Source: an uncultured Acidimicrobiia bacterium (GTDB lineage Bacteria; Actinomycetota; Acidimicrobiia; Spongiisociales; JAENVV01). Taken from it: a stretch of DNA of 64,000 nucleotides. Positions 31,856 to 63,821 of this stretch are shown piece after piece; within the stretch, counting starts at the first letter, position 1; each line of letters opens with the position of its first letter. Location of the stretch: the NCBI GenBank assembly GCA_963698385.1, contig CAVOQP010000006.1, positions 150,318 to 214,317 on the forward strand, written 5' to 3'. The position numbers and the translations under genes were made by a program. Below the pieces are notes generated by a model, which saw only the letters and a program-made list of their open reading frames with translations, was not told where the DNA came from and ran no database searches.

Positions 31856-31859
<4 letters not shown>
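30867..31859 (-). CDS. dihydroorotate-dehydrogenase-like (DHOD family) protein of the type co-encoded with pyruvate:ferredoxin oxidoreductase
   Basis: TIM-barrel PyrD-like sequence (LSLSSPIIATASPVTGTVSGLRKL...INGYTE...ELNIY...VKLGP...). Start overlaps the PFOR stop (translational coupling). Confidence 0.6.
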
Positions 31860-35425
<3,566 letters not shown>

Positions 35426-42315: not shown

Positions 42316-45204
42316 TCAGGCCTTGCCAGACTCCAGTGCCTGGTCGGCCAGCACCTGTGAGAAGATGTGGTCGGGGATGGCCGCGGCCGCCATCGGGCGG
42401 GCCATGAAGTATCCCTGGCCGGTGTTGCACCCGAGGTCGCGGAGGAAGGCGGCGTGCTGACTCTCCTCGATGCCCTCGGCGATGACCTCGAGGCCCAAAC
42501 CCTCGGCCAGCCGCACGGTGGCCTCGACGATCGACGCCGACGTGGCCGAGTTGAGCAAGTCCTTCACGAACTCCTGGGCGACCTTGATCCGGTTGACCTG
42601 GAACTGTTTGAGGTAGAGCAGCGACGAGTAGCCGGTGCCGAAGTCGTCGATCGCCAACCGGATCCCTGCCGACCGAAGGGAGGCAAGCACGTCCGTGTTG
42701 CCCGGGTCGGCCGAGAGCAGGGCGGCTTCCGTGAGCTCCAGTTCGATTCGATCGAGCTCGATCGGACAGGAGGAGAACTCGGCGAGGATCGTGTCGGCGA
42801 ACGTCGGGTCCTGCAGTTCCATGGGCGAGAGATTGACCCCGACCAGGGGAACCCGGAGCCCGGCGTCCTCCCACCGCTTGGCCTGCGCGAACGCCTCGGT
42901 CCGGACCCAACGTCCGATGGGGCGCATCAGGCCGTGGTCCTCCGCGACCCCTATGAAGAGGCCCGGAGGGACGATCCCGCGCGACGGATGGTCCCACCGA
43001 ATGAGCGCCTCGACGCCGGTGAGCTCCCCCGTGGTCAGGTTGTACTGGGGTTGGTAGTGGAGGAGGAACTGGTTGTGGGTGATGGCTTCCCGGAGTTCCT
43101 GGGCGATCTGGAGGTCGACCTTGAGCTGACGTCCCAGCTCCTCGTTGAACCAGACGGCGGTGTTGCGGCCGAGGTGCTTGGCTTGATAGAGCGCCACGTC
43201 GGCTTCATCGATCAGTTCGTCGGGCGCCTTTTCCCCCACCGAAGTCGTGATCCCGATGCTCGTCGAGATCTGGACCTCGCTCCCCATGAGCGTGAAGGGC
43301 TCACGCATCGAATCGAGGATCCGCTCGGCCAAGCGGTTCGCTTCTTCGGTGGTGGCGCCCTCGGTCAGGATGGCGAACTCGTCGCCGCCGAGCCGAGCGA
43401 CGACATCGACCTCGCGGACGATCGACTTGAAGCGGTTGCCGGCCTTCCGGATGAGTTGGTCGCCGGCCGGGTGCCCGAACGTGTCGTTGACGTTCTTGAA
43501 CCGGTCGAGGTCGAGGAACATGAGGTGGAGAGGTTCGCCGGTGCGTCGCGACCTCGCCAGGGAGAAGTCGAGGAGTTCGCGCAGGATGCGCCGGTTGGGG
43601 AGGCCGGTGAGGTCGTCGTGGGTGGCGAGGTAGTGGATTCGCTCCTCAGCCCTCAGTTGGTGGGTGATGTTCTCGATGACGGCGACGAGGTTCGCCACCT
43701 CGCCGTCGGGGTCCCTCACGGACGACATGGCCACTTCCGCTGTGATCGGGCGGCGGTTGAGGCCTTGGATCTCCAGGCGACCGGACCACGATCCGCTGTT
43801 GGCCGCCTGGTAGATCTCATCCCAGTTCGTCGTGTGGTCCTCGGTGTCGAGGATCGAGAGTGGTTTGCCCTGTGCGAGGAGGTTGGGGAAGCCGGTCATC
43901 GACGAGAACGCGGCGTTCGTCCACTCGATCTCGCCCTCGGGGGAGGTGACTGCCACCGCTGCCACGGTGGAGTTGAAGGCCGCAGTGATCACCTCCAGCC
44001 GTCGCATGTGGTCCTTGAGGTCCGTGATGTCGCGCCCCACCTCGACCGCCCCGACCGGGCGATCACCGGTGCCGGGGATCAGGAACGCAGATGCGATGAT
44101 GTCTCGTTCTCCCTTGGGGGTCGTGACCTTCAGTTCGAGCCCGGGGCCGAAGGCGCGGTCGTCGGCGATCACGGCAGCCTCGTTGAACACCTCTTCGAGG
44201 GGGGCGATCGCTTCCAGGCGCCACTCCTCGGCGAGGCGGTTCGCGAATCGGGCACCGGTCTCGAACGAGTGGGCGACGATCCCGTCCCCGGTGGCGTTGA
44301 GGATCGCCTCGAGGAACCGCTCGGTGTGTGAGAGGGTTGACGACACGGTTCGGAGTTCGGTGACGTCGGCCCAGACCGAGACTGCCCCGATCTGTCGGTG
44401 GAACGAGTTGTAGAGGGGGCGGGCGCTGGCTTCGAACTGTGTGGGGCCTTCCCTGCAGTCGATGGACAGGCGGGCGGAACGGACGATCTCCCCGCGGTGG
44501 GCCCGCGCCAACGGCAGGTCGGGCTGAGGGACGTCTCGGCCGGTGGAGTCCCTTGCCCGCAGGATGGTGCCGTCCCAAGCCTCGTCGGTGAACCGGGCGA
44601 AGTAGTTCCGGGCTGCGGCGTTGGTGGTGGTGATCCTCCCACGCATGTCGATGGCGATGATGGCCTCGGCGGTTGCGTCCATCACGCTTTCGAGGAGCAC
44701 CTGGTCGTCGCTGAGGGCGGTGATCGTCTGGTCACGTTCGGTCACGTCCTGGGCGACCAGGAGGACGCGCTCTCCGTCGGCCGGGGTGAGGGCCACGTCG
44801 TACGTCCGCACGTCTCCCGCGGCACCGCGGAGGCGGATGGCCCCGTACTCGAGGTCGCGGCTGGCCAGGGCCCGCGAAAGGAGGGGCGGGAGCGAGGGCG
44901 GCACGAGTTCGTCGAGGACTTCGTGGAGGAGGTCGACGAGGGGCTTGCCTGCACCGTCGGCCGGAGGGACACCCGCCACCGCCCACAGGCTGGGGTTGGC
45001 GTACTCGACCAACCCGGACGCGTCGACGACCGCGATGAGAGCCTCCTGCTCGGCGAGGAGTGCGAGGACGACCGCCAACTCGCTCTCGATTCGTTGCGGC
45101 TCCACTGCGGCTCCTGGTCGGCGGCTGATCACGGTGGCTGCCAACGGAGTTGAATCGCCCGATCCCGCGCTTGAGAACGAGCGTTCAAGCCTCCCTGTGG
45201 CCAC
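42316..45204 (-). CDS. multi-PAS sensor diguanylate cyclase/phosphodiesterase (PAS x3-4, GGDEF, EAL)
   Basis: GGDEF domain with intact RLGGDEFAIL. EAL domain with EALIRW...DDFGTGYSSL...KVAQEF. Several PAS/PAC repeats N-terminal. Confidence 0.85.
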   Translation of the reverse strand: MATGRLERSFSSAGSGDSTPLAATVISRRPGAAVEPQRIESELAVVLALLAEQEALIAVVDASGLVEYANPSLWAVAGVPPADGAGKPLVDLLHEVLDELVPPSLPPLLSRALASRDLEYGAIRLRGAAGDVRTYDVALTPADGERVLLVAQDVTERDQTITALSDDQVLLESVMDATAEAIIAIDMRGRITTTNAAARNYFARFTDEAWDGTILRARDSTGRDVPQPDLPLARAHRGEIVRSARLSIDCREGPTQFEASARPLYNSFHRQIGAVSVWADVTELRTVSSTLSHTERFLEAILNATGDGIVAHSFETGARFANRLAEEWRLEAIAPLEEVFNEAAVIADDRAFGPGLELKVTTPKGERDIIASAFLIPGTGDRPVGAVEVGRDITDLKDHMRRLEVITAAFNSTVAAVAVTSPEGEIEWTNAAFSSMTGFPNLLAQGKPLSILDTEDHTTNWDEIYQAANSGSWSGRLEIQGLNRRPITAEVAMSSVRDPDGEVANLVAVIENITHQLRAEERIHYLATHDDLTGLPNRRILRELLDFSLARSRRTGEPLHLMFLDLDRFKNVNDTFGHPAGDQLIRKAGNRFKSIVREVDVVARLGGDEFAILTEGATTEEANRLAERILDSMREPFTLMGSEVQISTSIGITTSVGEKAPDELIDEADVALYQAKHLGRNTAVWFNEELGRQLKVDLQIAQELREAITHNQFLLHYQPQYNLTTGELTGVEALIRWDHPSRGIVPPGLFIGVAEDHGLMRPIGRWVRTEAFAQAKRWEDAGLRVPLVGVNLSPMELQDPTFADTILAEFSSCPIELDRIELELTEAALLSADPGNTDVLASLRSAGIRLAIDDFGTGYSSLLYLKQFQVNRIKVAQEFVKDLLNSATSASIVEATVRLAEGLGLEVIAEGIEESQHAAFLRDLGCNTGQGYFMARPMAAAAIPDHIFSQVLADQALESGKA

Positions 45205-52751: not shown

Positions 52752-53507
52752 TCAGGGGCGGCCGGGGGTGGGTCGCTGGGAGAAACGGACGGCAGCGGCC
52801 TGGACCTCTCGACCGAGGGCTGCTTCCCGACCCGGTTCGGGGAAGCGATAGCTCGGACCGTGCACGTGAATCGCGCCGAGCACCTGCCCACCGAGATCGA
52901 AGACAGCCGACGCGACCGACGTGATCCCCTCGGCGTACTCCTCCTCGATCCAGAAGAACCCCTGGGCCCGGATGGCCTCGAGTCGATCCCGGATCGTCGA
53001 CGGATCGGTGACGGTGCGCGGCGTGAAGGACTCGAGATCGCGTGACAGGTATCGGTCGATCTCGGCCGCTGGCCAGTTGGCCATGATGCACAGCCCGGAC
53101 GGGCCGACGTGCATCGGCACCCGGAGGCCGCTGTAGTCGCGGACCTGCACCGCGTTCGGCCCTTCGGCCTGCACCAGATAGTGCGTCGAGTACCCGACCG
53201 GTACCGAGAAGCCAGCGGTCTCGCCGAGGTGTTCGGCGAGGTGGGCCAGGTGGGGGCGAACCGCCATGATGAGCGAGTCGGACGCGTCGACGGAACCAGC
53301 CAGCTCGCCGATGGACTTCCCGATCCGGTAGTCGGAGGAGTCGTCGGCTCGTTCGACCGCCCCAACCTGTTCGAGTGTGGAGAGCATGCGGGCCACCGTG
53401 GACTTGGGCAGTGCGACCCGGGAGGCGATCTCCGAGACCCCGGCAGGTCCGACCGCCAGGCTCTGGAGGATCGAGAAGGCTCTCTCTATCGATTGGATGG
53501 ACGACAT
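52752..53507 (-). CDS. IclR family transcriptional regulator
   Basis: N-terminal HTH (IERAFSILQSLAVGPAGVSEIASRVALPKSTVARMLSTLE) plus C-terminal IclR effector domain. Confidence 0.8.
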   Translation of the reverse strand: MSSIQSIERAFSILQSLAVGPAGVSEIASRVALPKSTVARMLSTLEQVGAVERADDSSDYRIGKSIGELAGSVDASDSLIMAVRPHLAHLAEHLGETAGFSVPVGYSTHYLVQAEGPNAVQVRDYSGLRVPMHVGPSGLCIMANWPAAEIDRYLSRDLESFTPRTVTDPSTIRDRLEAIRAQGFFWIEEEYAEGITSVASAVFDLGGQVLGAIHVHGPSYRFPEPGREAALGREVQAAAVRFSQRPTPGRP

Positions 53508-53516
53508 GTGCTCTCC

Positions 53517-54356
53517 TCACTGCCCCGAGTCGGGGCCGTGGGTGGCGTCCCTCAGCGCAGCCTCGAACCACGCGACCGTGTCCTCGACTTGGTTGAAGGT
53601 GAAGATGTGAAGCCCGCGAATCCCGAGCGTGGGATCGAGGCCGGCGATGTCGTCGAGGAGGTCGTCGGGAGTGAACAGGCCGGGACGAATCATCCTGGCG
53701 ATCACGCGTCGGTTCTTCGTGAGGTAGCGGAGGGAGGCACCGACCCCGATCCGGGCTCCGATTGCCATCAGCTTGAGGGTGTCGGAGGCCCCGGGCACCC
53801 CGACCATGACCGGGAGGTCGATCCCGGCTGCTCGGATGTCCCGGATCCACTGCTCGATCGGGCCGGCGTCGAGGCACATCTGGGTGGTCACGTGTCCCGC
53901 CAGGGGCGACTTGTCTGAGAGGGCCGTCATCAGGGCGTCCGGTTGGATGAACGGGTGTCCTTCCGGGTACCCGGCGATGCCGATCTCGGCGAAGGGGTGG
54001 GACATCGTGGCCAGTGCGGAGAGCAGCGCCCCGGCGTCGGGGAATTCCCCGTGGTCGGTCGCATCACCGCCGACGACGAAGGCCCGAGTGATCCCGGCCG
54101 ATCCGAGGCGATCCACGATCGAGGCGAGGTCGCCCGTCGATGGGATCATCCTTGCCGCGAGGTGGGCCACCACGTCGTAGCCGTGCGATGCCAGGTGCGC
54201 GCACAACTCGACGGTCGCTTCCATCCCCTTGGTCGGTGACGCCGTCACCGAGACCGTCGCCCCGGTTGGGAGTCCCAGCGCCCGCTCGGCGGTGGACTTC
54301 ATGGGGATCACCTCGAAGATCGAGTGGTCCAGGAGGTCGAGGAGTCGCTCGTTCAT
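53517..54356 (-). CDS. metF: methylenetetrahydrofolate reductase (MetF-like, short type)
   Basis: 279 aa TIM-barrel with MetF-like blocks (FEVIPMKS...VVAHLAAR...AFVVGGD...IGIAGYPEGHP...MVGVPGA). Lies at the distal end of the methyltransferase operon. Confidence 0.65.
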   Translation of the reverse strand: MNERLLDLLDHSIFEVIPMKSTAERALGLPTGATVSVTASPTKGMEATVELCAHLASHGYDVVAHLAARMIPSTGDLASIVDRLGSAGITRAFVVGGDATDHGEFPDAGALLSALATMSHPFAEIGIAGYPEGHPFIQPDALMTALSDKSPLAGHVTTQMCLDAGPIEQWIRDIRAAGIDLPVMVGVPGASDTLKLMAIGARIGVGASLRYLTKNRRVIARMIRPGLFTPDDLLDDIAGLDPTLGIRGLHIFTFNQVEDTVAWFEAALRDATHGPDSGQ

Positions 54357-54359
54357 GGG

Positions 54360-55886
54360 TCAGAGGTCCGAGTCCGGGTAGGACGCTCGGCGGACATCGA
54401 TCCACTCGCGGAGCTCGGCGTCCTTCGCCTCGTCGAACGCGGGGAGCACGTACTCGGCGAGCATCTCCTTCCACCGTTTGTTGGCCATCATCTCGGCATC
54501 CGGTGCGCCCTCCGATTCCCACTGCTCGAAGCTGTTGTTGTCGGACAGGCCCGACGTCCAGAACGCTGTTTCGAAGTTGGCGAGGGTGTGTGGGGAGCCG
54601 AGATAGTGCTGCCCGGGATCGTTCTCGAGCATGGCATCGAGGGCAAGCCCGTTCTCACTGAGGTCGATGCCCCCCATGAGCTTGCCGGCCATTCCTGACC
54701 TGTCGGCATCGAGTACGAACTTCTCGTACCCCATGGTCAGGCCGCCTTCGAGCCACCCCGCAGCGTGGAGGACGAAGTTGGTGCCGGCTTGCATCGTGGA
54801 CATGAACGAGACGGCGCTCTCGTACGCAGCCTGGTAGTCGGACGTCTTGGATGATGTGAGGTTGCCGCCGCTCCGGAACGGGACCCCGAGTCGGCGGGCG
54901 AGTGCTGCAACCGTGTAGAGCACCATGCTGGGTTCGGGTGTCCCGAATGTCGGGGCGCCCGACTGCATGGACATCGACGAGGCGAACGAGCCGAAGATCA
55001 CCGGGGATCCCGGCCGGACGATCTGGCAGAACGCCATTCCGGCCAGCGCTTCGGCGAGGGTCTGGGTTGCGGCCGCAGCCGGGGTCACCGGCGACATCGC
55101 CCCGGTGAGGATGAAGGGGGTGATGAGGCTGGCCTGGTTGTTCTCGGCGTAGACCTTCGCCGAACCGAGCATGCTGAAGTCCCACGACATCGGCGAGTTG
55201 GCGTTGATCAGGCTTGTCAGCACCGTGTTCTGGTCGACGAATTCCTCGCCGAACACGATCCTGGCCATGTCGACGGAGTCCTGGGCACGACTCGGGTGGG
55301 TCACCGATCCCATGAACGGTTTGTCGGAATACGTGATGTGGCTGTAGAGCATCTCGAAGTGCCGCTTGTTGACAGGGAGGTCCACGGGCTCGCACAGCGT
55401 GCCGCCCGAGTGGTGCATGGCGGGGGCGAGGTAGGCCAGTTTCACGAAATTCCGGAAGTCCTCGATGGTCGCGTAGCGCCTCCCACGGTCGAGGTCTCGC
55501 ACGAAGGGCGACCCGTAGGCCGGAGCGAAGACGAGGTGCGGGTCACCGATGCGGACCGACCGCGCAGGGTTCCGGGCGTGCTGGGTGAAGACGGCAGGTG
55601 CAGAGTCGGTGATGAGGCCCCGGCACAGGCCCCGGGGGAAGCGAACGCGCGTGCCGCGCACGTCTGCACCGGCCGAGGCGAAGATCTCGAGGGCTTCTGG
55701 ATAGCCACCGATCTCGACGCCGACGCTCTCGAGCAGGGTGTCGGCGTGCTGCTCGATGAGCGAGAGGCCCTCCTCGCTGATCACCTCGAGGGGTGCCAGC
55801 GTCCTGGTGAGGAAGGGGATGGTGTCGATGGACCGGGCGGTCCGTTCGGCCTGGCGGGCTGCGCGCCCACGTCGTGCGTCGCTCAT
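54360..55886 (-). CDS. MttB-superfamily (trimethylamine methyltransferase family, non-pyrrolysine) quaternary amine:corrinoid methyltransferase, substrate unknown (glycine betaine plausible)
   Basis: 508 aa, collinear with MttB/MtgB proteins (FVDQNTVLTSLINANSPMSWDFSMLGSAKVYAENNQASLITPFILTGAMSPVTPAAA). No in-frame UAG. Confidence 0.8.
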   Translation of the reverse strand: MSDARRGRAARQAERTARSIDTIPFLTRTLAPLEVISEEGLSLIEQHADTLLESVGVEIGGYPEALEIFASAGADVRGTRVRFPRGLCRGLITDSAPAVFTQHARNPARSVRIGDPHLVFAPAYGSPFVRDLDRGRRYATIEDFRNFVKLAYLAPAMHHSGGTLCEPVDLPVNKRHFEMLYSHITYSDKPFMGSVTHPSRAQDSVDMARIVFGEEFVDQNTVLTSLINANSPMSWDFSMLGSAKVYAENNQASLITPFILTGAMSPVTPAAAATQTLAEALAGMAFCQIVRPGSPVIFGSFASSMSMQSGAPTFGTPEPSMVLYTVAALARRLGVPFRSGGNLTSSKTSDYQAAYESAVSFMSTMQAGTNFVLHAAGWLEGGLTMGYEKFVLDADRSGMAGKLMGGIDLSENGLALDAMLENDPGQHYLGSPHTLANFETAFWTSGLSDNNSFEQWESEGAPDAEMMANKRWKEMLAEYVLPAFDEAKDAELREWIDVRRASYPDSDL

Positions 55887-57865
55887 GTCGTCTCCTGGTC
55901 TGCCGTCCGTCGGCGGCGGTCGCGGGTTCGGGTGATGCGGGGGGCTGGGAGGGTGACCATCGCCCCAAGTCGTCGGTAGGGGTCCTTGGCGTGGGGGATC
56001 GACATGGCGGCGACGAAGTGCTCCTGGAACGCCGGCTCGGTCGCCGTCTCGATCTTTTCGATGGTGCGAGCCACGGACTCGACCTCGCGGCGGGACACGC
56101 CGGAAAGGAGAGCCATGAGGGCCCCGGTGCCGGCCGCGTTGCCCGCCGCCGAGACCCGCGTAGGGTCGATGTCGGGCACCAGGCCCAGCACCAGGGCGTG
56201 CATCGGGTCGATGTGGCTCCCGAAGGCACCGGCGAGTCGGATCGAGTCGACCTCTCTCACTCCCAAACGCTCCATCAGCAGGACGCAGCCGGCATGGAGG
56301 GCCGCCTTGGCGAGTTGAACTGCCCTGACGTCGTTCTGGGTCACCTCGACGATGGGGTCATCCCACAGCCGGTAGGAGAAGGTCCGCCCGTTACCGACGA
56401 CGCGTGCGGCAGCCGGGTCCTCGGCGATGACGCCGTCACTGGACAGGACCCCGGCCAGGTACATCTCTGCGACGGCCTCGATGATGCCGGAGCCACAGAT
56501 GCCGGTGACGCCCGTGGAATGCACCGAGTCAGCGAAACCGGGATCGTCCGACCACACTTCGGATCCGATCACCGTGAAGCGCGGCTCCTTGGTGTCGGGG
56601 TCGACCCGGACCCGCTCGATGGCCCCCGGGGTGGCTCGCTGCCCTGACGAGATGGCCGCCCCCTCGAACGCGGGGCCGGTGGGGGAGGAGGCTGCCATGA
56701 GTCGGTGACGGTTGCCGAGGATGATCTCGGCATTGGTGCCGATATCCACCAGCAACGTGACGGCCTCGCCGCGGTGGGGCCCCTCTGAGAGCGTCATGGC
56801 GGCAGCGTCGGCGCCCACATGCCCGGCGATGCACGGGAGTGCGTACACCGTGGCCCCGGGGTGCACCGAGAGGCCCAGTTCGGTTGCCCCGGTCTCCACG
56901 GCCTCGTCCGTGGCCAAGGCAAAGGGGGCGGTGCCCAGCGGAGTGGGATCGATCCCGAGGACGAGGTGGTGCATGATCGGGTTGCCGACGAACGTCAACT
57001 CGATGATGTCCTGCCGTGCGGTGTCGGCGTCGGTGCAGAGGTCGCCGATGAGGTCGTTCATTGCCTCCCGGACCCGGGCGGTGAGGATGGCCCGTCCCCC
57101 GGGGTTGAGCATCACGTAGGAGACCCGGCTCATGAGGTCCTCACCGAAGGCGATCTGGGGGTTCATGCGGCCGGCGGATGCCAGGATCGCACCCGAGGTG
57201 AGGTCGCAGAGGTGCCCGGCGAGGGTGGTGGATCCGACGTCGAACCCGACGCCGAGGATACGATCCCTGAAGCCCGGGAAGACCCCGACCAACGCTTTGT
57301 CGTGGCGAAGGGCGACAGTCACTGCCCACTGTCCGTCCCGGAGTGCGGATTGAACGGTGCCGAGCACCGAGGAGTGGACCGTCGCGACGGTGAGGCCCCA
57401 CTGGTCGACCAGGGCCGCCCGGAGCCGTTCCAGGTCACCGGATGGGGACGCCAAGTCGGGTTCCGGCACGGTGACGTAGTACAAGCGGACGACGGGGTCG
57501 ACAGCGATCGCATCGACATCGGCCCGCTTGCGGATGACCTGGCGATGGATCTGGCTTTCCGGCGGAACATCGATGACGACGTCCATCATCGCCTGGGCGG
57601 CGCAGCCAAGCCGGTGCCCCGCTCCCAGCGGGCGTCGCCCCCGGTAGTCGACCTCGATCGGTCCCGGCGCCGACAGGGAGGTGTGGTCCACCGGTACCCC
57701 GGACCGTGATCCAAGTGTCACTTGGCACCGGCCGCATATCCCGCGACCACCGCACACGGTGTCGAGGTCGACGCCCAACTCCCGGGCAGCGGCGAGCAGG
57801 TCGGTCCCGGTCGGGAACCTTCCCCGCCGGCCGGACGGGGCGAACGCGATCTCGACGGTCGACAC
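55883..57865 (-). CDS. corrinoid activation/regeneration protein (RamA/RACo-type reductive activase: N-terminal 2Fe-2S ferredoxin + ASKHA/DUF4445 ATPase)
   Basis: Ferredoxin motif CGGRGICGRCQV...C. Large ASKHA-like body with glycine-rich loops (GFDVGSTT, VDIGTNAEI, GICGSGIIEAV). Confidence 0.75.
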   Translation of the reverse strand: MSTVEIAFAPSGRRGRFPTGTDLLAAARELGVDLDTVCGGRGICGRCQVTLGSRSGVPVDHTSLSAPGPIEVDYRGRRPLGAGHRLGCAAQAMMDVVIDVPPESQIHRQVIRKRADVDAIAVDPVVRLYYVTVPEPDLASPSGDLERLRAALVDQWGLTVATVHSSVLGTVQSALRDGQWAVTVALRHDKALVGVFPGFRDRILGVGFDVGSTTLAGHLCDLTSGAILASAGRMNPQIAFGEDLMSRVSYVMLNPGGRAILTARVREAMNDLIGDLCTDADTARQDIIELTFVGNPIMHHLVLGIDPTPLGTAPFALATDEAVETGATELGLSVHPGATVYALPCIAGHVGADAAAMTLSEGPHRGEAVTLLVDIGTNAEIILGNRHRLMAASSPTGPAFEGAAISSGQRATPGAIERVRVDPDTKEPRFTVIGSEVWSDDPGFADSVHSTGVTGICGSGIIEAVAEMYLAGVLSSDGVIAEDPAAARVVGNGRTFSYRLWDDPIVEVTQNDVRAVQLAKAALHAGCVLLMERLGVREVDSIRLAGAFGSHIDPMHALVLGLVPDIDPTRVSAAGNAAGTGALMALLSGVSRREVESVARTIEKIETATEPAFQEHFVAAMSIPHAKDPYRRLGAMVTLPAPRITRTRDRRRRTADQETT

Positions 57866-57869
57866 GGAC

Positions 57870-58769
57870 TCAGCCCCGACGCCGGTTGCCCCGGCGAGCC
57901 CGGTGGGCGTCCCCCGCCCCGAGGTCGACGGCCCGATGGTGGCGGATCCACGTCTCGCAGTTGGGATCGTGCCCTGCGAGCACGTCGGCAGCCATGATCG
58001 ACCGCGTGATCTCGGTCTCCAGGGGATTGGTGATCGCGGAGGTCAATCCGGACGCGACCGCCATGGCGAGGAAGGCGGCGTTGATCCCCGGGCGATTCGG
58101 GAGCCCGAAACTGACGTTGGATGCTCCGCACGTCGTGTTGACCCGGAGTTCGTCACGGAGGCGACCGAGCAGATGGAAGACCTGTCGCCCGGCGGTTCCC
58201 ATGGCCCCGATGGGCATGACCAGGGGGTCGACAACGATGTCCTCCTTGGGGATGCCGTGGTCGGCGGCGCGATTGACGATCCTGCGGGCGACCTCGAACC
58301 GCACGTCAGGATCCTCGGAGATCCCGGTCTCGTCGTTGCTGATGGCGACGACTGCCGCTCCGTACTTCTTGATCAGCGGGAACACGGCCTCCATGCGGTC
58401 CTCCTCACCGGTGACTGAATTGACGAGTGCCTTGCCCTTGTACACGGCAAGGCCGGCTGCCAACGCCTCGACGATCGAGCTGTCGAGGGAGAGCGGCACA
58501 TCGACCAACCCTTGGACCAACAGTACGGTCTGGGCCAGGATCGTCGGCTCGTCGGCGAGTGGGATCCCGGCGTTCACGTCCAACATGCGGGCGCCGGCCT
58601 CGACCTGGGCGACGGCGTCGGTCTCCACCCGGCTGAAGTCGCCTTCCTTCATCTCGGCCGCGAGGAGCTTGCGGCCGGTGGGGTTGATGCGCTCCCCGAT
58701 GATGACGAAGGGGCGGTCGAAACCGATCACTACCTCCCGGGTGGGTGAGCTGACGTACGTGTCGGTCAT
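57870..58769 (-). CDS. pterin-binding methyltransferase (methylcobalamin:tetrahydrofolate methyltransferase, MtgA/MtrH/AcsE-like)
   Basis: ATG at 58769 with upstream ggag RBS. Dihydropteroate-synthase-like barrel (FVIIGERINPTGRKLLAAEMKEGDFS...MLDVNAG...ALVNSV...TCGASNVSFGLPNR). Confidence 0.65.
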   Translation of the reverse strand: MTDTYVSSPTREVVIGFDRPFVIIGERINPTGRKLLAAEMKEGDFSRVETDAVAQVEAGARMLDVNAGIPLADEPTILAQTVLLVQGLVDVPLSLDSSIVEALAAGLAVYKGKALVNSVTGEEDRMEAVFPLIKKYGAAVVAISNDETGISEDPDVRFEVARRIVNRAADHGIPKEDIVVDPLVMPIGAMGTAGRQVFHLLGRLRDELRVNTTCGASNVSFGLPNRPGINAAFLAMAVASGLTSAITNPLETEITRSIMAADVLAGHDPNCETWIRHHRAVDLGAGDAHRARRGNRRRG

Positions 58770-59095
58770 TGGTTCTCCGGGCCGTCGTGGCCGCCGGCCA
58801 TGGCCAATCGGCCGAGGGTATCCGGGGTGAACTCGAGTTCGAGGCGCGTCGCGGCCTCCTCGACGGCAGCCTCGAGGTCGATGGTGCATGGCGCCGTCGT
58901 CCGCCGCCATTCGCCGAGGTATTCGTCGGTGCCGAAGAGGCCGGCCTCCATGGCGGCCCGATCGATGGCAGCCTGGAAGCGGGGAGAAAGCTCGCGTCGC
59001 GCTGTCTCGCTTCCGGCCCGAGCGGTGACCTGGGCGGGGATGGCACGCCAGGAGATGACCGTGAGAGTGGGAGAAGCCCCCGAGCGTTCCCTCAT
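58766..59095 (-). CDS. small acidic protein (109 aa) of unknown function, translationally coupled between DUF1638 and the pterin methyltransferase
   Basis: ATGA overlaps at both ends. No recognisable motif. Confidence 0.3.
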   Translation of the reverse strand: MRERSGASPTLTVISWRAIPAQVTARAGSETARRELSPRFQAAIDRAAMEAGLFGTDEYLGEWRRTTAPCTIDLEAAVEEAATRLELEFTPDTLGRLAMAGGHDGPENQ

Positions 59096-59688
59096 GCCCG
59101 GAGCTCCGCCACCGCAGCTTCCAGGTCGCCGTAGCCGACGTGCCTGTGCCGGAACGCCAGGCCGAGCCTGTTGGCCGCTGCCTCGGCCCGCGAGACGAGT
59201 GTGGGATCGTCCACCTGGGAGAGGTAGACGAGTTGGCGGTAGTTGCCGAAGTAGGTGTCAAGGAGCTGGGGGTGGCGGTCGAGACCCAGCCCACTCCAGA
59301 CGAGGCGATCGAAGTGTCGAGCGAGGTAGTCGGTGAGATAGAAGGTGCGCGGCTCTTCGTCGTGCAACGACGCAAAGACGGAACCTCCACTGAAGAATTC
59401 GTAGCAGTGGGCGCCGGGGAGGCGTTCCACACCGTGCTTGGCGAGCACGGCGTCGAGTTGGCCCCCGGTCCCGCAGTCGGCGTAGCCGACGTAGATCGTG
59501 TCGTAGTCGTCCTTTGCCCGGACGATCCGTTCCTCGACTGCCGCGGGGATCCGATCCGGATGGTTGTGGTACGAGGCGGGAAGGCACTCGACCCGCAGTT
59601 GGGTGAGGTTGGTGCGGCGCACCACTTCGAGGAGCTCGCGGGCGATGGCGCCGCAGGCGATGATGAGGGTCCGGGGGTGCTCGGTCAA
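59092..59688 (-). CDS. DUF1638 domain protein (family recurrently encoded beside MttB-family/corrinoid methyltransferase genes)
   Basis: 198 aa, TTG start per track. TLIIACGAIARELLEVV...YVGYADCGTGGQLDAVL pattern matches the DUF1638 Cys-containing core. Confidence 0.5.
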   Translation of the reverse strand: MTEHPRTLIIACGAIARELLEVVRRTNLTQLRVECLPASYHNHPDRIPAAVEERIVRAKDDYDTIYVGYADCGTGGQLDAVLAKHGVERLPGAHCYEFFSGGSVFASLHDEEPRTFYLTDYLARHFDRLVWSGLGLDRHPQLLDTYFGNYRQLVYLSQVDDPTLVSRAEAAANRLGLAFRHRHVGYGDLEAAVAELRA

Positions 59689-59697
59689 CGCCTCACC

Positions 59698-60384
59698 TCA
59701 CATCGATCGCCTGGCCAGCACGAGGGCCTCTGCGGTCTGGGCGGCGACGGCCGCGTCGCGGCAGTAGGCGTCGGCGCCGACTGCCTTGCCGAACTCCTCG
59801 TTGAGTGGTGCACCCCCGACCAGCACGATGTACTGGTCGCGGAGGTTCCGGGCGATGAGGGTGTCGATCACCACCTTCATGTAGGGCATCGTCGTGGTGA
59901 GCAAGGCAGACATGCCGAGGATGTCCGGCTGGTGTTCCTCGAGGGCTGCGAGGAACTCCTCGGCATCGGTGTTGATGCCGAGGTCGATCACCTCGAAGCC
60001 GGCGCCTTCCAGCATCATCCCGACGAGGTTCTTGCCGATGTCGTGGATGTCGCCCTTGACGGTGCCCAGCACCACCTTGCCGATGGTGGATGCCCCGGTC
60101 TCGGCGAGGAGTGGGCGGAGGAGGCTCATGCCCGCCTTCATGGCGTTGGCCGAGAGCAGCACCTCGGGCACGAAGAGGATGCCGTCGCGGAAGTCGATGC
60201 CGACGATGCGCATCCCTTCGACGAGGGCCTCGCTGAGCACCCGTTGGGGATCCCAGCCCCGGCCGAGGAGGATCCGTGTTCCCTCGGCGATCTCATCGGC
60301 GAGGCCGTCGTAGAGGTCGTCGTGCATCTGGGGGACGAGGTCGTCGTCGGGGAGCGTGGAGAGGTCGAGGTTGTCGTCAGCCAT
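59698..60384 (-). CDS. cobalamin-binding corrinoid protein (MtgC/MtbC-like)
   Basis: B12-binding motif GTVKGDIHDIGKNLV (DxHxxG) with Rossmann-like domain and N-terminal helical cap. 228 aa. Confidence 0.8.
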   Translation of the reverse strand: MADDNLDLSTLPDDDLVPQMHDDLYDGLADEIAEGTRILLGRGWDPQRVLSEALVEGMRIVGIDFRDGILFVPEVLLSANAMKAGMSLLRPLLAETGASTIGKVVLGTVKGDIHDIGKNLVGMMLEGAGFEVIDLGINTDAEEFLAALEEHQPDILGMSALLTTTMPYMKVVIDTLIARNLRDQYIVLVGGAPLNEEFGKAVGADAYCRDAAVAAQTAEALVLARRSM

Positions 60385-60417
60385 GGCAGGCTCCTGGAGG
60401 GGTTGTCACGCACTGGC

Positions 60418-60434
60418 ATTCCACGATGTGGAAT
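60418..60434. promoter_or_regulatory. perfect palindrome attccac-gat-gtggaat ~35-50 bp upstream of the corrinoid-protein gene; candidate operator for the adjacent GntR regulator
   Basis: Direct reading: cattccacgatgtggaatcg, in the 185-bp leader of the methyltransferase operon. Confidence 0.35.
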
Positions 60435-60569
60435 CGTCTTGCGATATGGAACAAACGATAGCTCACGCCCCGCTCGTCGTCCATCAATCCCGCGGGGATT
60501 TCGCAATGGTGCGTCGCTCCGAGCGCGCCTCCTGACAGGAGGTGGACTCGTCCGATTCGGGGGTGGTCG

Positions 60570-61226
60570 TCAGATGATCGAGCGGACGGCGCGTTCAAAG
60601 CCGCGCACGTGCCGTCTCGCCACCGCGCGGGACCGGGTGGCATCACCGGCGAGCACTGCGTCGATGAGTTCCACGTGCTCCTCCACATGGCTGGAGATGT
60701 CGGGGAGGCGCTCGATGAAGAGGTGCCAGATCCGGAGCGCCAGGTTGTGGTACATCGTGGCGGTGGCCGTGAGGAACCGGTTGTGGGCGGCGGCATAGAT
60801 CGCCCGGTGGACCTCGGTGTCGACGCGGATCTGGGCGGCGATGGTCGTGGCCCGGAGCGTTGGGGTGAGGGCCTCGAGGGCCACCCGATCGGTATCGGTG
60901 GCTCGCCCGGCGGCCGATGCAGCGGCGTGCCCCTCCAACTCCTCGCGCAGGTCGGTGATCAGGGCGAGGTCGGCGATGTTGATGTCGGCTGCGAAGGTGC
61001 CCCGCCTCGGGTAGACCCTGACCAGTTGCTCACCCTCGAGGCGATGGACCGCCTCCCGCAAGGGTGTGCGGCCGACCCCGATCCGCTCCATGAGCTCGGC
61101 TTCCGGCAGCGGGGCGCCCGGCGGGATACCGAGCGTGATCAGCAGGTCCCGCAGCTCTTCGTAGGCCTCGTCGGCCCGGGAGACGTTTCCCCGTTGGAGT
61201 GCATGCACTGACATCCTGATCACCAA
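60570..61226 (-). CDS. GntR family transcriptional regulator (FadR-like C-terminal domain)
   Basis: wHTH (AYEELRDLLITLGIPPGAPLPEAELMERIGVGRTPLREAVHRLEGEQLVRV) plus all-helical FCD domain. Confidence 0.8.
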   Translation of the reverse strand: MVIRMSVHALQRGNVSRADEAYEELRDLLITLGIPPGAPLPEAELMERIGVGRTPLREAVHRLEGEQLVRVYPRRGTFAADINIADLALITDLREELEGHAAASAAGRATDTDRVALEALTPTLRATTIAAQIRVDTEVHRAIYAAAHNRFLTATATMYHNLALRIWHLFIERLPDISSHVEEHVELIDAVLAGDATRSRAVARRHVRGFERAVRSII

Positions 61227-61295: not shown

Positions 61296-63821
61296 ATGAG
61301 CGAATTCCCGTCACAGGCCAGGGTGGTCATCATCGGGGCCGGGATCGTCGGCAACAGCCTGCTCGGACACCTGGCAGACCTCGGGTGGGATGACATGGTC
61401 CTCATCGACAAGGGCCCTCTCCCGAACCCCGGGGGGTCGACCGGCCACGCCTCGAACTTCATCTTCCCCACGGACCACAACAAGGAGATGGCCTTCCTCA
61501 CGGTCGAGAGCCAGCGCCAATACGAGGTCGCCGGGTTCAACACGGTGTGTGGCGGTATCGAGGTGGCTCGCACCCCCGAGCGCATGGAGGAGTTCCGTCG
61601 CCGGATGACCTCGGCCAAGTCGTACGGCATCGAATCCGAGCTGCTGACCCCCGCCGAGGTGAAGGAGTTGGTCCCATTCATCACCGAGGATGTGATCCTC
61701 GGGGGATTCCACACCCCGAGCGTCAGCGTCGTCGACTCGCTCGGCTATGGCACTTTCATGCGCGACCGGGCGAAGAACGCCGGCGCCGCCCAGGTGTTCG
61801 CCAACACCGAGGTGCTCGACCTCGAAACGGAACCCACCCCCTACGGACGACCCCGGGTCACGGCCGTGGTGACCGACCGCGGCCGAATCGAGGTGGAGCA
61901 TGTCGTGGTCGCGTGTGGCGTGTGGAGTCCCCGGATTGCGGCCATGGCCGGAGCAACGATCCCCCTCACGCCGGCCGTGCACCAGATGGCGGACGTCGGG
62001 CCGATCGATGTGCTGGCGGCCACCGGCAACGAGATCGGGTACCCGATCGTCAGGGACATGGACACATTCATGTACGAGCGTCAATCCGCCGGGTCGATGG
62101 AGGTCGGGTCGTACGCCCACCGCCCGATCTTCGTCCACCCGGATGAGATCCCCTCCAATGACGAAGCCGCACTCTCACCGACCGAGATGCCCTTCACCCC
62201 CGACGACTTCGACGACCAGATGGAGGATGCGCTGGAGCTCATGGGCGACATCCTCGAGACCGCCGAGATCCGATACGCCATCAACGGCCTGCTGTCGCTC
62301 ACACCCGATGCCATGCCGGTCCTGGGAGAGACGGTGGAGGTGGCGAACCTCTGGTCCGCTGCGGCCGTATGGATCAAGGAGGGCCCGGGGATCGCCCAGA
62401 TGATCGCCGAGTGGATGACCCACGGGTATCCACACATGTGTGACCCGCACGGCTCCGACATTGCCCGCCTCTACCCGCACGAACGCTCGGAGTCCCACAT
62501 CAATGCCCGATGCGCCGAGCACTTCAACAAGACGTACGGCATCGTCCATCCCCGTGAGCAATGGGCCAGTCGCCGTGGCCTCAAGCGATCGCCATTCCAC
62601 GCCCGCGAGGAGGCGCTCGGGGCCGCCTTCTACGACGCCCGGGGCTGGGAGCGGCCCCAGTGGTATGAGACCAACACCGACCTCGTTGAACGGTACGGGG
62701 TCGAGGATCGTCCCCACGAGTGGGACCGCCGCTGGTGGTCGCCGATCATCAACGCCGAACACCTCCACCTCCGAGAGAAGGTGGGCATGGTCGACCTCAC
62801 CGCCTTCCAGGTCTTCGAAGTCACCGGGCCCGGGGTGGTCGACTACATGCAGAAGATGACGGTCAACAGCGTGGAGGTGGCCGTGGGCCGGTCCGTCTAC
62901 ACACCGGTACTCACCGAACATGGCGGATTCAGATCGGACCTCACGGTGCTGCGTCTCGGAGCCGACCGGTATCGGATCGTCACCGGAGCCTTCGACGGCG
63001 GGCGGGACGAGTACTGGTTCCGCCGCAACCTCCCTGGTGATGGTTCCGTGCAGTTCGAGAACCGAACGTCGAGCCTCACGACCATCGGCGTCTGGGGACC
63101 CGACGCCCGTCGGGTGGTCGAAGTCGCCGCCGAAGGCGACGTCTCCGAGGAGGCAATCCCCTACGGGTCGGTCAGGGACGTGCTGATCGCCGGCGTCCCT
63201 TGCACACTCTTCCGCATCTCCTACGTCGGTGACCTCGGGTTCGAGATCTACACCGCGATGGAGTACGGCCTCGGCGTGTGGGACGCCCTGGCGGAGGCGG
63301 GCCGCGCCTTCGACATCCGGCCGGTGGGGATCGGCGTATATGGCACCACGGGTCGGCTCGAGAAGGGGTACCGCCTCATGGGTGCCGAGCTCGAGTCCGA
63401 ATACACGCCGGTCGAGGCCGGACTCGCCCGACCCCGAGTGAAGGCGGCGGACTTCATCGGCAAGGAGGCGTACCTGGCAGCCCGCGAAGAGGACCCGGTG
63501 GCGATCCTGTGCACGTTGACCATGGACTCCCACGAGGATGCGTCCGGGGTGAGGCGGTATCCGACTGGGGGAAACGAGCCGATCCTCACTCTCGACGGAG
63601 ACCGGATCGTCGATGCGAAAGGCCGTGTCTCCAGGGTCACCTCCGCCGGTGCCGGGCCGTCCCTCGGGGCGTACCTGTTGTTGGCCTACCTGCCTCCCGA
63701 CCACGCCGTGGAGGGTGCGAAGCTGCAGGTCATGTACATGAACGAGTGTTTCCCGGTGACGGTTGCCCGGGTCGGGAGCGAGCCCCTGTTCGACCCGGAC
63801 GACAGTCGGATGAAGTCCTGA
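61296..63821 (+). CDS. dimethylglycine/sarcosine dehydrogenase family enzyme (FAD-dependent oxidoreductase fused to GcvT-like tetrahydrofolate-binding aminomethyltransferase domain)
   Basis: N-terminal FAD fold VVIIGAGIVGNSLLGHLADLGW. C-terminal GcvT-like domains (MVDLTAFQVFEVTGPG...YVGDLGFEIY). 841 aa. Confidence 0.8.
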   Translation: MSEFPSQARVVIIGAGIVGNSLLGHLADLGWDDMVLIDKGPLPNPGGSTGHASNFIFPTDHNKEMAFLTVESQRQYEVAGFNTVCGGIEVARTPERMEEFRRRMTSAKSYGIESELLTPAEVKELVPFITEDVILGGFHTPSVSVVDSLGYGTFMRDRAKNAGAAQVFANTEVLDLETEPTPYGRPRVTAVVTDRGRIEVEHVVVACGVWSPRIAAMAGATIPLTPAVHQMADVGPIDVLAATGNEIGYPIVRDMDTFMYERQSAGSMEVGSYAHRPIFVHPDEIPSNDEAALSPTEMPFTPDDFDDQMEDALELMGDILETAEIRYAINGLLSLTPDAMPVLGETVEVANLWSAAAVWIKEGPGIAQMIAEWMTHGYPHMCDPHGSDIARLYPHERSESHINARCAEHFNKTYGIVHPREQWASRRGLKRSPFHAREEALGAAFYDARGWERPQWYETNTDLVERYGVEDRPHEWDRRWWSPIINAEHLHLREKVGMVDLTAFQVFEVTGPGVVDYMQKMTVNSVEVAVGRSVYTPVLTEHGGFRSDLTVLRLGADRYRIVTGAFDGGRDEYWFRRNLPGDGSVQFENRTSSLTTIGVWGPDARRVVEVAAEGDVSEEAIPYGSVRDVLIAGVPCTLFRISYVGDLGFEIYTAMEYGLGVWDALAEAGRAFDIRPVGIGVYGTTGRLEKGYRLMGAELESEYTPVEAGLARPRVKAADFIGKEAYLAAREEDPVAILCTLTMDSHEDASGVRRYPTGGNEPILTLDGDRIVDAKGRVSRVTSAGAGPSLGAYLLLAYLPPDHAVEGAKLQVMYMNECFPVTVARVGSEPLFDPDDSRMKS

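Follow-up and report, generated by a model that had tools for sequence, protein, structure and literature searches.

Aerobic demethylation of glycine betaine in Ruegeria pomeroyi proceeds with MtgC, MtgD and the MttB-family protein MtgB (Mausz 2025, PMC12478193). The DUF1638 protein of this bacterium (SPO2162) was induced on betaine with a log2 value of 3.95 (approximately 16-fold), together with MtgC and RamA (4.23 each), and was labelled "B12-reactivation" by inference (PMC12478193). In Phaeobacter inhibens, mutants in the DUF1638 gene PGA1_c13340, which adjoins the corrinoid-protein gene, were methionine auxotrophs, and DUF1638 was cofit with a RamA-like protein and with all three components of a split B12-dependent methionine synthase (MetH) (Price 2018, PMC5764234). 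The corrinoid protein and the pterin methyltransferase of that synthase correspond to MtgC and MtgD of betaine demethylation (PMC12478193). The phyletic pattern of DUF1638 matched the RamA-like pattern in that study, which made "no specific proposal" for its function (PMC5764234). We analysed a 64,000-nucleotide stretch of contig CAVOQP010000006.1 from an uncultured Acidimicrobiia bacterium (assembly GCA_963698385.1, positions 150,318 to 214,317), referred to as the window, in which a DUF1638 gene and a gene for a 109-amino-acid PF13769 protein are embedded in an operon for corrinoid-dependent methyl transfer. Both proteins very probably belong to a methyl-transfer system of this aerobic type, and we hold with moderate confidence that they are accessory parts of its cobalamin-dependent MtgB/MtgC/MtgD and RamA machinery.

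The two open reading frames (ORFs) were as follows:

59092..59688, minus strand: DUF1638 protein, 198 amino acids, TTG start, assigned by PF07796, an AlphaFold2 model, residue conservation and a GC content at third codon positions (GC3) of 0.84
58766..59095, minus strand: PF13769 ("Virulence_fact") protein, 109 amino acids, ATG start, pI 4.86

The 198-amino-acid protein matched PF07796 with an E-value of 1.3e-29 and 103.6 bits (cut-off 27) over profile positions 1–160 of 161, and all 47 aligned DUF1638 homologues matched the same family. The 109-amino-acid protein matched PF13769 with an E-value of 5e-16 and 59.3 bits (cut-off 25) over profile positions 2–80 of 81. NCBIfam gave no model for either protein. 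A sequence-only reading of the window had placed both ORFs at exactly these coordinates, had rightly described the shorter protein as acidic and had picked out two DUF1638 motifs that are present in the translation, IIACGAIA (residues 9–16) and YADCGTGG (residues 69–76). Its statement that the 109-amino-acid protein has no recognisable domain was overturned by the PF13769 match. It had also called both proteins uncharacterised, which is accurate in that neither has an assigned biochemical role and inaccurate for DUF1638 in view of the auxotrophy in P. inhibens and the induction in R. pomeroyi. The GC3 values of 0.84 (DUF1638) and 0.80 (PF13769) compared with 0.43–0.71 in overlapping alternative and antisense ORFs, in a genome with 66.7% GC. 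Based on these values, the Pfam E-values and hundreds of homologues with 42–80% identity, both ORFs are true genes and not chance ORFs of high-GC DNA. The nearest homologues of both were found in Acidimicrobiia metagenome-assembled genomes (MAGs). Two long spurious ORFs, 57870–59432 (minus strand, 520 amino acids) and 59140–60798 (plus strand, 552 amino acids), extend across the real genes or lie antisense to them, which is typical of DNA with 67% GC; the true start of the pterin methyltransferase downstream of the PF13769 gene is 58769, not 59432.

Both genes were conserved with MtgBCD/RamA-type operons across phyla, tightly packed, presumably co-transcribed with them and with conserved overlaps. 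Of the 1273 clusters (50% identity; 690 with E ≤ 1e-10) that a profile built from 29 PF13769 homologues retrieved, nearly all were stand-alone proteins of approximately 100 amino acids. A scan of one genome per species yielded more than 450 confirmed PF13769 loci. Neighbourhood counts were made on the best 80, which came from Acidimicrobiia, Thermoleophilia/Gaiellales, Chloroflexota, Gamma-, Alpha- and Betaproteobacteria and Rhodothermales (at least five phyla) and whose six-frame ORFs were searched with the proteins of the window. In raw co-occurrence with PF13769, homologues of DUF1638 were present in 71/80 loci, of the pterin methyltransferase in 77/80, of the corrinoid protein in 72/80, of the corrinoid activator RACo in 73/80 and of MttB in 54/80. 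Among loci with enough flanking DNA, DUF1638 was directly upstream of PF13769 in 65/73 and the corrinoid protein no more than 1.2 kb upstream in 60/67, while the pterin methyltransferase, RACo and MttB were found anywhere in the locus in 75/78, 65/68 and 49/60, respectively. The order C > D > V > P > R (> B > F) was kept in the great majority of the 80 loci (C, corrinoid protein; D, DUF1638; V, PF13769; P, pterin methyltransferase; R, RACo; B, MttB; F, methylenetetrahydrofolate reductase, MTHFR), with C-P-R-V, C-P-R-D-V, C-D-P-R-B-F-V and C-D-V-R as exceptions. An MTHFR-like gene occupied the same position in 41/80 loci, and dimethylglycine-oxidase-like homologues occurred in 36/80. The sequence-only reading had proposed such a co-occurrence analysis, with a lack of association as the refuting outcome; the opposite was observed, the association of both families with corrinoid methyltransferase loci being very strong across phyla. 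Single-linkage clustering of the locus ORFs for further conserved neighbours returned one cluster, as stop-to-stop segments cross genes in high-GC DNA.

The junctions were conserved as well. The PF13769 and pterin methyltransferase genes overlapped by 4 nt in 43/54 loci, a canonical PF13769 start was located within −13 to +14 nt of the DUF1638 stop in 55/65, and the DUF1638 stop preceded the codon of the invariant Trp16 of PF13769 by 11–38 nt in 57/65. In five Gaiellales/Gaiellaceae MAG loci (L017, L026, L030, L038, L039), no ATG, GTG or TTG was present between the preceding in-frame stop and the PF13769 core, and the sole start option was a CTG overlapping the DUF1638 stop by 4–8 nt. This suggests that a CTG start or termination–reinitiation coupling may be used in these five loci.

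In the window, the order on the minus strand was corrinoid protein, DUF1638, PF13769, pterin methyltransferase, RACo, MttB-family protein, MTHFR-like protein and IclR-family regulator. The genes around the two ORFs were:

59698..60384, minus strand: stand-alone corrinoid protein, MtgC-like, with B12 cap and B12-binding domain (PF02607, PF02310)
57870..58769, minus strand: methyl-tetrahydrofolate (methyl-THF):corrinoid methyltransferase, pterin-binding, MtgD-like (PF00809; NF005719)
55883..57865, minus strand: RACo/RamA-like ATP-dependent reductive activator of corrinoid proteins (PF14574, PF17651 and PF17650; RACo linker, middle and ASKHA domains)
54360..55886, minus strand: MttB-superfamily methyltransferase, non-pyrrolysine, MtgB-like, 508 amino acids (PF06253, E-value 8e-214)
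53517..54356, minus strand: divergent MTHFR-like protein, MetF2-like, 279 amino acids (PF02219, E-value 4e-10)
52752..53507, minus strand: IclR-family regulator (PF01614, PF09339), final gene of the packed cluster, 9-nt gap to the MTHFR-like gene
60570..61226, minus strand: GntR/FCD regulator (PF07729, PF00392), 185 nt upstream of the operon
61296..63821, plus strand: dimethylglycine-oxidase-like FAD/folate enzyme (PF01266, PF16350, PF01571, PF08669), beyond the GntR/FCD gene

From the domains of all its genes, the operon that contains the two ORFs is indeed one for corrinoid-dependent methyl transfer. By its predicted proteins, this operon is of the MtgBCD/RamA type, with a non-pyrrolysine MttB protein, a corrinoid protein with B12 cap and DxHxxG motif (GDIHDIG), a pterin methyltransferase and an activase. 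The MttB-family gene (710.6 bits to PF06253) was an uninterrupted ORF with no in-frame stop, and the pterin methyltransferase scored 361.7 bits against NF005719 (cut-off 259). The AcsV and RamA models matched the RACo-like protein below cut-off. Its N-terminal region aligned to the [2Fe-2S] N-termini of RACo homologues and to nqrF/GbcB models, and a Fer2 Pfam match was not obtained for the window protein. The MTHFR-like protein, with a weak match to PF02219 (39.9 bits, residues 30–187), resembles a diverged reductase of the MetF2 type; its place in proteobacterial clusters is taken by MetF and a MetV-like PF12225 protein. Glycine betaine would be the most likely substrate from gene context, with the adjacent dimethylglycine-oxidase-like gene and the betaine transporter genes that flank a homologous cluster in Azoarcus.

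The stop of the DUF1638 gene and the start of the PF13769 gene share ATGA (59092–59095, 4-nt overlap), as do the PF13769 stop and the ATG of the pterin methyltransferase (58766–58769, 4-nt overlap). The corrinoid-protein stop (TGA, 59700–59698) is followed by a 9-nt gap, GGTGAGGCG, and then by the DUF1638 TTG at 59688; this spacer is GAGG-rich and Shine–Dalgarno-like. The 4-nt overlaps that the sequence-only reading had given for both sides of both ORFs were thus present at the two junctions of the PF13769 gene and absent between the corrinoid-protein and DUF1638 genes. Successive genes of the eight-gene cluster (60384 to 52752) were spaced by +9, −4, −4, +4, −4, +3 and +9 nt. Tight spacing is therefore a trait of the whole cluster and not peculiar to the DUF1638 and PF13769 genes. 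Within the cluster, no promoter- or terminator-like sites were found above shuffled expectation, and an Rfam scan of the window returned no cobalamin riboswitch and no other RNA family.

The operon resembles the MtgBCD(E)/RamA/DUF1638 systems of R. pomeroyi and P. inhibens in the protein families, the position of DUF1638 beside the corrinoid-protein gene, the MetF2-like reductase and the nearby dimethylglycine-degrading genes. While the parts of the roseobacter systems are dispersed, those of this high-GC, Acidimicrobiia-like genome are gathered in a single compact operon, which in addition contains a PF13769 gene that is outside the published model. MtgE, a homocysteine S-methyltransferase present in the roseobacter system, was not found in the scanned part of the window, which comprised the operon and the neighbouring genes starting at 31.8 kb. 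With the MtgB/MtgC/MtgA systems of Desulfitobacterium hafniense and methanogens, which are cited in PMC12478193, the operon shares the relay from a substrate methyltransferase via a corrinoid protein to a second methyltransferase, and ATP-dependent reductive activation (RamA). Those systems are anaerobic, and the corrinoid protein of the window, with MtgC models as its best NCBIfam matches, remained under their cut-offs (205.7 versus 370 bits). The operon is a compact Acidimicrobiia-like member of the aerobic MtgBCD/RamA/DUF1638 system published in 2018–2025, and the kind of system is therefore known. An addition to the published picture, as an annotation-level and comparative observation, is PF13769 as a near-constant extra component with no solved fold relative and a misleading name.

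The location of the two genes was also compared in annotated genomes and in clusters that are split. Azoarcus KH32C encoded C-D-V-MetV-MetF-P-RACo amid genes for a glycine-betaine ATP-binding cassette transporter, an electron-transfer flavoprotein and an FAD-oxidoreductase. In S. meliloti, the corrinoid-protein and DUF1638 genes were together, and approximately 2.4 kb away V headed the series V-MetV-MetF-P-x-RACo. The arrangement in Pseudorhodobacter was V-MetF2-MtgD. A second scan, of metagenomes and seeded with the alphaproteobacterial PF13769 type, gave 80 Rhodobacterales-type marine loci in which PF13769 was always the first gene (80/80). It was directly followed by a MetF2-like gene and then by the pterin methyltransferase in 69 of the 71 loci with downstream sequence, and RACo came next in 11 of these V-MetF2-MtgD loci. 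No corrinoid-protein or DUF1638 gene was present in the DNA fetched for the 80 loci, which covered at least 2 kb upstream of V in 49. In the Rhodobacterales-type loci, DUF1638 and PF13769 are in separate operons. Stoichiometric production of the two proteins with the corrinoid protein and the THF methyltransferase, which the sequence-only reading had drawn from coupling, is putative and was overstated in this light. The split clusters indicate that DUF1638 keeps with the stand-alone corrinoid protein and PF13769 with the methyl-THF/reactivation half (MtgD, MetF2, RACo).

Synteny with the 69 marine loci makes SPO1861 of R. pomeroyi, which precedes SPO1862 (MetF2) and SPO1863 (MtgD), a probable PF13769 orthologue. 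Detection of SPO1861 rested on 7 peptides, and its induction was significant both on carnitine (log2 3.0) and on succinate plus betaine (log2 4.0) (PMC12478193, Dataset S1). In one further locus (L084, 5691–11202), PF13769 was located directly before RACo, beside and divergent from a canonical multi-domain metH gene with its own reactivation domain. No DUF1638 gene and no separate corrinoid-protein gene were found near this metH gene, on a contig riddled with frameshifts. This arrangement indicates that RACo and PF13769 may also serve classical MetH. A 112-amino-acid hypothetical protein encoded between mtgD and RACo in S. meliloti was ruled out as a PF13769 paralogue (hhalign probability 0.05). 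A gene for approximately 234 amino acids next to mttB (L083, 5074–5778, minus strand; L082, 4561–5268, minus strand) was rejected as a core component, having been found in 1/80 loci; it is conserved in S. meliloti and Paracoccus, is annotated as "ferredoxin" in S. meliloti and had no Pfam match.

The AlphaFold2 model of DUF1638 had a predicted local distance difference test score (pLDDT) of 92.4 and a predicted template modelling score of 0.83, with alternating strands and helices arranged in two alpha/beta lobes. The residues invariant from Actinomycetota to Proteobacteria were Cys12-Gly13 at the end of strand 1, His41, Tyr69-x-Asp71-Cys72-Gly-Thr-x-Gly76 after strand 3, Asp79, Arg89, His94-Cys95, Thr119-Asp120 and Gln158. 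The window protein contained exactly four cysteines, of which Cys35 was conserved in 85–95% of the homologues and absent in P0297 and P0164. The emphasis of the sequence-only reading on conserved cysteines thus held up as far as conservation is concerned (Cys12, Cys72 and Cys95, with His41 and His94), and metal or cofactor binding through them would be a reasonable proposal. From the topology of the model, the invariant Cys, His and Asp residues would line the C-terminal edge of the sheet, where a ligand of the cleft would sit. DUF1638 resembles Asp/Glu/hydantoin racemases and type I periplasmic binding proteins in having two Rossmann-like lobes and a ligand cleft, in which the racemases carry catalytic cysteines; both superfamilies were the nearest solved folds, below significance. 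Foldseek with the DUF1638 model returned nothing at E ≤ 1e-3, no Pfam family other than DUF1638 matched DUF1638 proteins even at E-values up to 10, and searches of PDB sequences with the DUF1638 and PF13769 profiles gave chance matches only. Membership of DUF1638 in the Asp/Glu racemase superfamily was rejected, as there was no significant sequence or fold match.

The PF13769 model (pLDDT 85.8) had the order strand-strand-strand-helix-helix-strand-helix-helix, a fold with no solved structural relative. The invariant residues Trp16, Arg17, Ile19, Pro20, Gln22, Arg39, Phe40, Asp45, Tyr59 and Trp63 suggest a specific binding surface, and no cofactor motif was present in the protein. An intersubunit metal site through Cys70 was considered and dropped, as S. 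meliloti, P0097 and P0241 lack this residue. The last of these proteins (214 amino acids, from an ENA contig of 5103 bp) was a singleton cluster and a tandem duplication with two complete PF13769 domains, a possible hint of dimer formation in the family.

For the system as a whole, we propose that a quaternary amine, most likely glycine betaine, would be demethylated and the methyl group passed to tetrahydrofolate, with the dimethylglycine-oxidase-like enzyme carrying out the next demethylation step. DUF1638 would act on the stand-alone corrinoid protein, whose gene nearly always directly precedes that of DUF1638, and on its cobalamin, by way of the Cys/His-lined cleft between the two alpha/beta lobes of DUF1638. 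It would bring the cobalamin into a usable state or maintain it there, by loading or processing of the cofactor or by mending it once oxidised, in a step that precedes the action of the ATP-dependent RACo or accompanies it. Helpers dedicated to the loading, processing or renewed reduction of methyltransferase cobalamin are RACo for CoFeSP, flavodoxin or methionine synthase reductase acting with the MetH reactivation domain, and the eukaryotic cobalamin chaperones CblC/CblD; in CblD and BtuM, a cysteine thiolate serves as cobalt ligand. The parallel of DUF1638 and PF13769 with RACo–CoFeSP, MetH reactivation and CblC/CblD is a functional analogy, and no sequence or fold relationship was detected. 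We consider a role of DUF1638 as a cofactor-maintenance factor fairly probable, and the more specific loading or thiolate-ligand mechanism doubtful. PF13769 would be a small cofactor-free subunit or adaptor of the methyl-THF/reactivation half (MtgD, MetF2, RACo); its assignment as an adaptor of the MtgD/RACo half is tentative. A bolder and unlikely version is that DUF1638, PF13769 and RACo form an unrecognised cobalamin loading and repair machine that would let oxygen-sensitive corrinoid methyltransferases work in aerobes, with DUF1638 as a new type of B12 chaperone or processing enzyme and PF13769 as a new-fold adaptor docking this process to the MtgD/RACo half. DUF1638 would then carry cobalamin in its Cys/His cleft and either deliver it to the stand-alone corrinoid protein or repair it there.

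Several points weigh against the assignment of both proteins as accessory parts of the methyl-transfer machinery. Any biochemical activity, ligand or partner of either protein is putative. Anaerobe MtgB/C/A-type reconstitutions from the Ferguson and Krzycki laboratories reportedly ran in vitro on RamA or a chemical reductant alone, which would place DUF1638 and PF13769 outside the catalytic core. Paracoccus aminovorans encoded C-D-MetV-MetF-P-RACo with no PF13769 gene detectable in that replicon; the cluster, on plasmid IV (L082, 7115–13531), is complete, with a divergent MttB gene and 186 nt between DUF1638 and MetV. PF13769 is therefore dispensable or encoded elsewhere in some aerobes. The neighbour of PF13769 varies between D, P, MetV, MetF2 and RACo, so that several proteins are candidates for its direct partner, and 2/80 PF13769 genes were in unrelated gene contexts. 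Candidate D-V and V-RACo fusions are unusable as evidence, being singletons or located on indel-rich contigs. The D-V (P0297), V-Fer2-RACo (P0295) and V-pterin methyltransferase (P0341) proteins were not used, P0341 being visibly frameshifted and P0295 and P0297, like P0241, being singleton clusters; the V-RACo proteins P0390 and P0391 were set aside as products of long-read MAG contigs with most genes broken by indels.

Among other explanations, DUF1638, alone or with PF13769, could be a missing electron-input module in which a metal or Fe-S centre or a thiol/disulfide relay (Cys12, Cys72, Cys95, His41/His94) passes electrons to the [2Fe-2S] cluster of RACo for the ATP-driven reduction of Co(II) to Co(I). 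To our knowledge, no physiological reductant of RACo-type activases is known in aerobes, and the three invariant cysteines and two invariant histidines lie on loops at the C-terminal edge of the parallel sheet in the model. The RamA-like phyletic pattern of DUF1638 and the methionine auxotrophy shared with RamA-like mutants (PMC5764234) also agree with it. DUF1638 matched no Fe-S, flavin or NAD(P) family, however, and the fourth cysteine, Cys35, is not invariant. In split clusters, moreover, DUF1638 keeps with the corrinoid-protein gene and not with RACo, which includes the locus tags in R. pomeroyi (PMC12478193); we regard this explanation as unlikely. DUF1638 might instead be a thiol-dependent enzyme of the racemase or isomerase type whose substrate is not the corrinoid but a small molecule of betaine or C1 metabolism. 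The Asp/Glu racemase family, with paired catalytic cysteines in the inter-lobe cleft, speaks for this as a best structural neighbour, and we give it a very low probability.

For PF13769, a role as accessory subunit of the methyl-THF-oxidising reductase (MetF2 or MetF–MetV), outside the corrinoid machinery and with DUF1638 as a functionally unrelated neighbour, would agree with the MetF2-like gene that directly follows it in 69/71 marine loci and with MetV–MetF in this position in Azoarcus and S. meliloti. It is quite improbable in view of the window and most of the 80 loci, where PF13769 abuts the pterin methyltransferase and the MTHFR-like gene is four genes away or absent (present in 41/80), and in view of V-RACo and C-D-V-RACo arrangements without any nearby MTHFR gene. 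A true virulence function of the 109-amino-acid protein, or its presence as an unrelated passenger, is suggested by the Pfam and NCBI name only and is hardly credible. The family occurred in free-living Actinomycetota, Chloroflexota and Proteobacteria of soil and sea and lay within B12 methyltransferase operons in 78/80 genome loci and 80/80 marine loci (158/160). The searchable literature contained no mention of PF13769, no support for a virulence function and nothing tying a "virulence factor" gene to B12 methyltransferase operons. Given this context, the name is a misnomer.

Two further genes were observed elsewhere in the window. A 1189-amino-acid single-polypeptide pyruvate:ferredoxin/flavodoxin oxidoreductase (31856–35425, minus strand) is a possible source of low-potential electrons. 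A 962-amino-acid PAS-PAS-GGDEF-EAL cyclic-di-GMP signalling protein (42316–45204, minus strand) has no relation to the methyltransferase operon.

The assignment of both proteins as accessory parts of the MtgBCD/RamA machinery concerns a cobalamin-dependent demethylation that has lately been recognised as a major aerobic route of glycine betaine turnover and methionine synthesis in ocean and soil. DUF1638 is genetically required in the published system, yet has no proposed mechanism. Together with PF13769, it would provide two concrete testable targets, which include the likely PF13769 orthologues of R. pomeroyi and P. inhibens just upstream of metF2-mtgD (metF2-PGA1_c16040 in P. inhibens). That PF13769 so constantly accompanies the system, across at least five phyla, argues for a correction of the "virulence factor" annotation.

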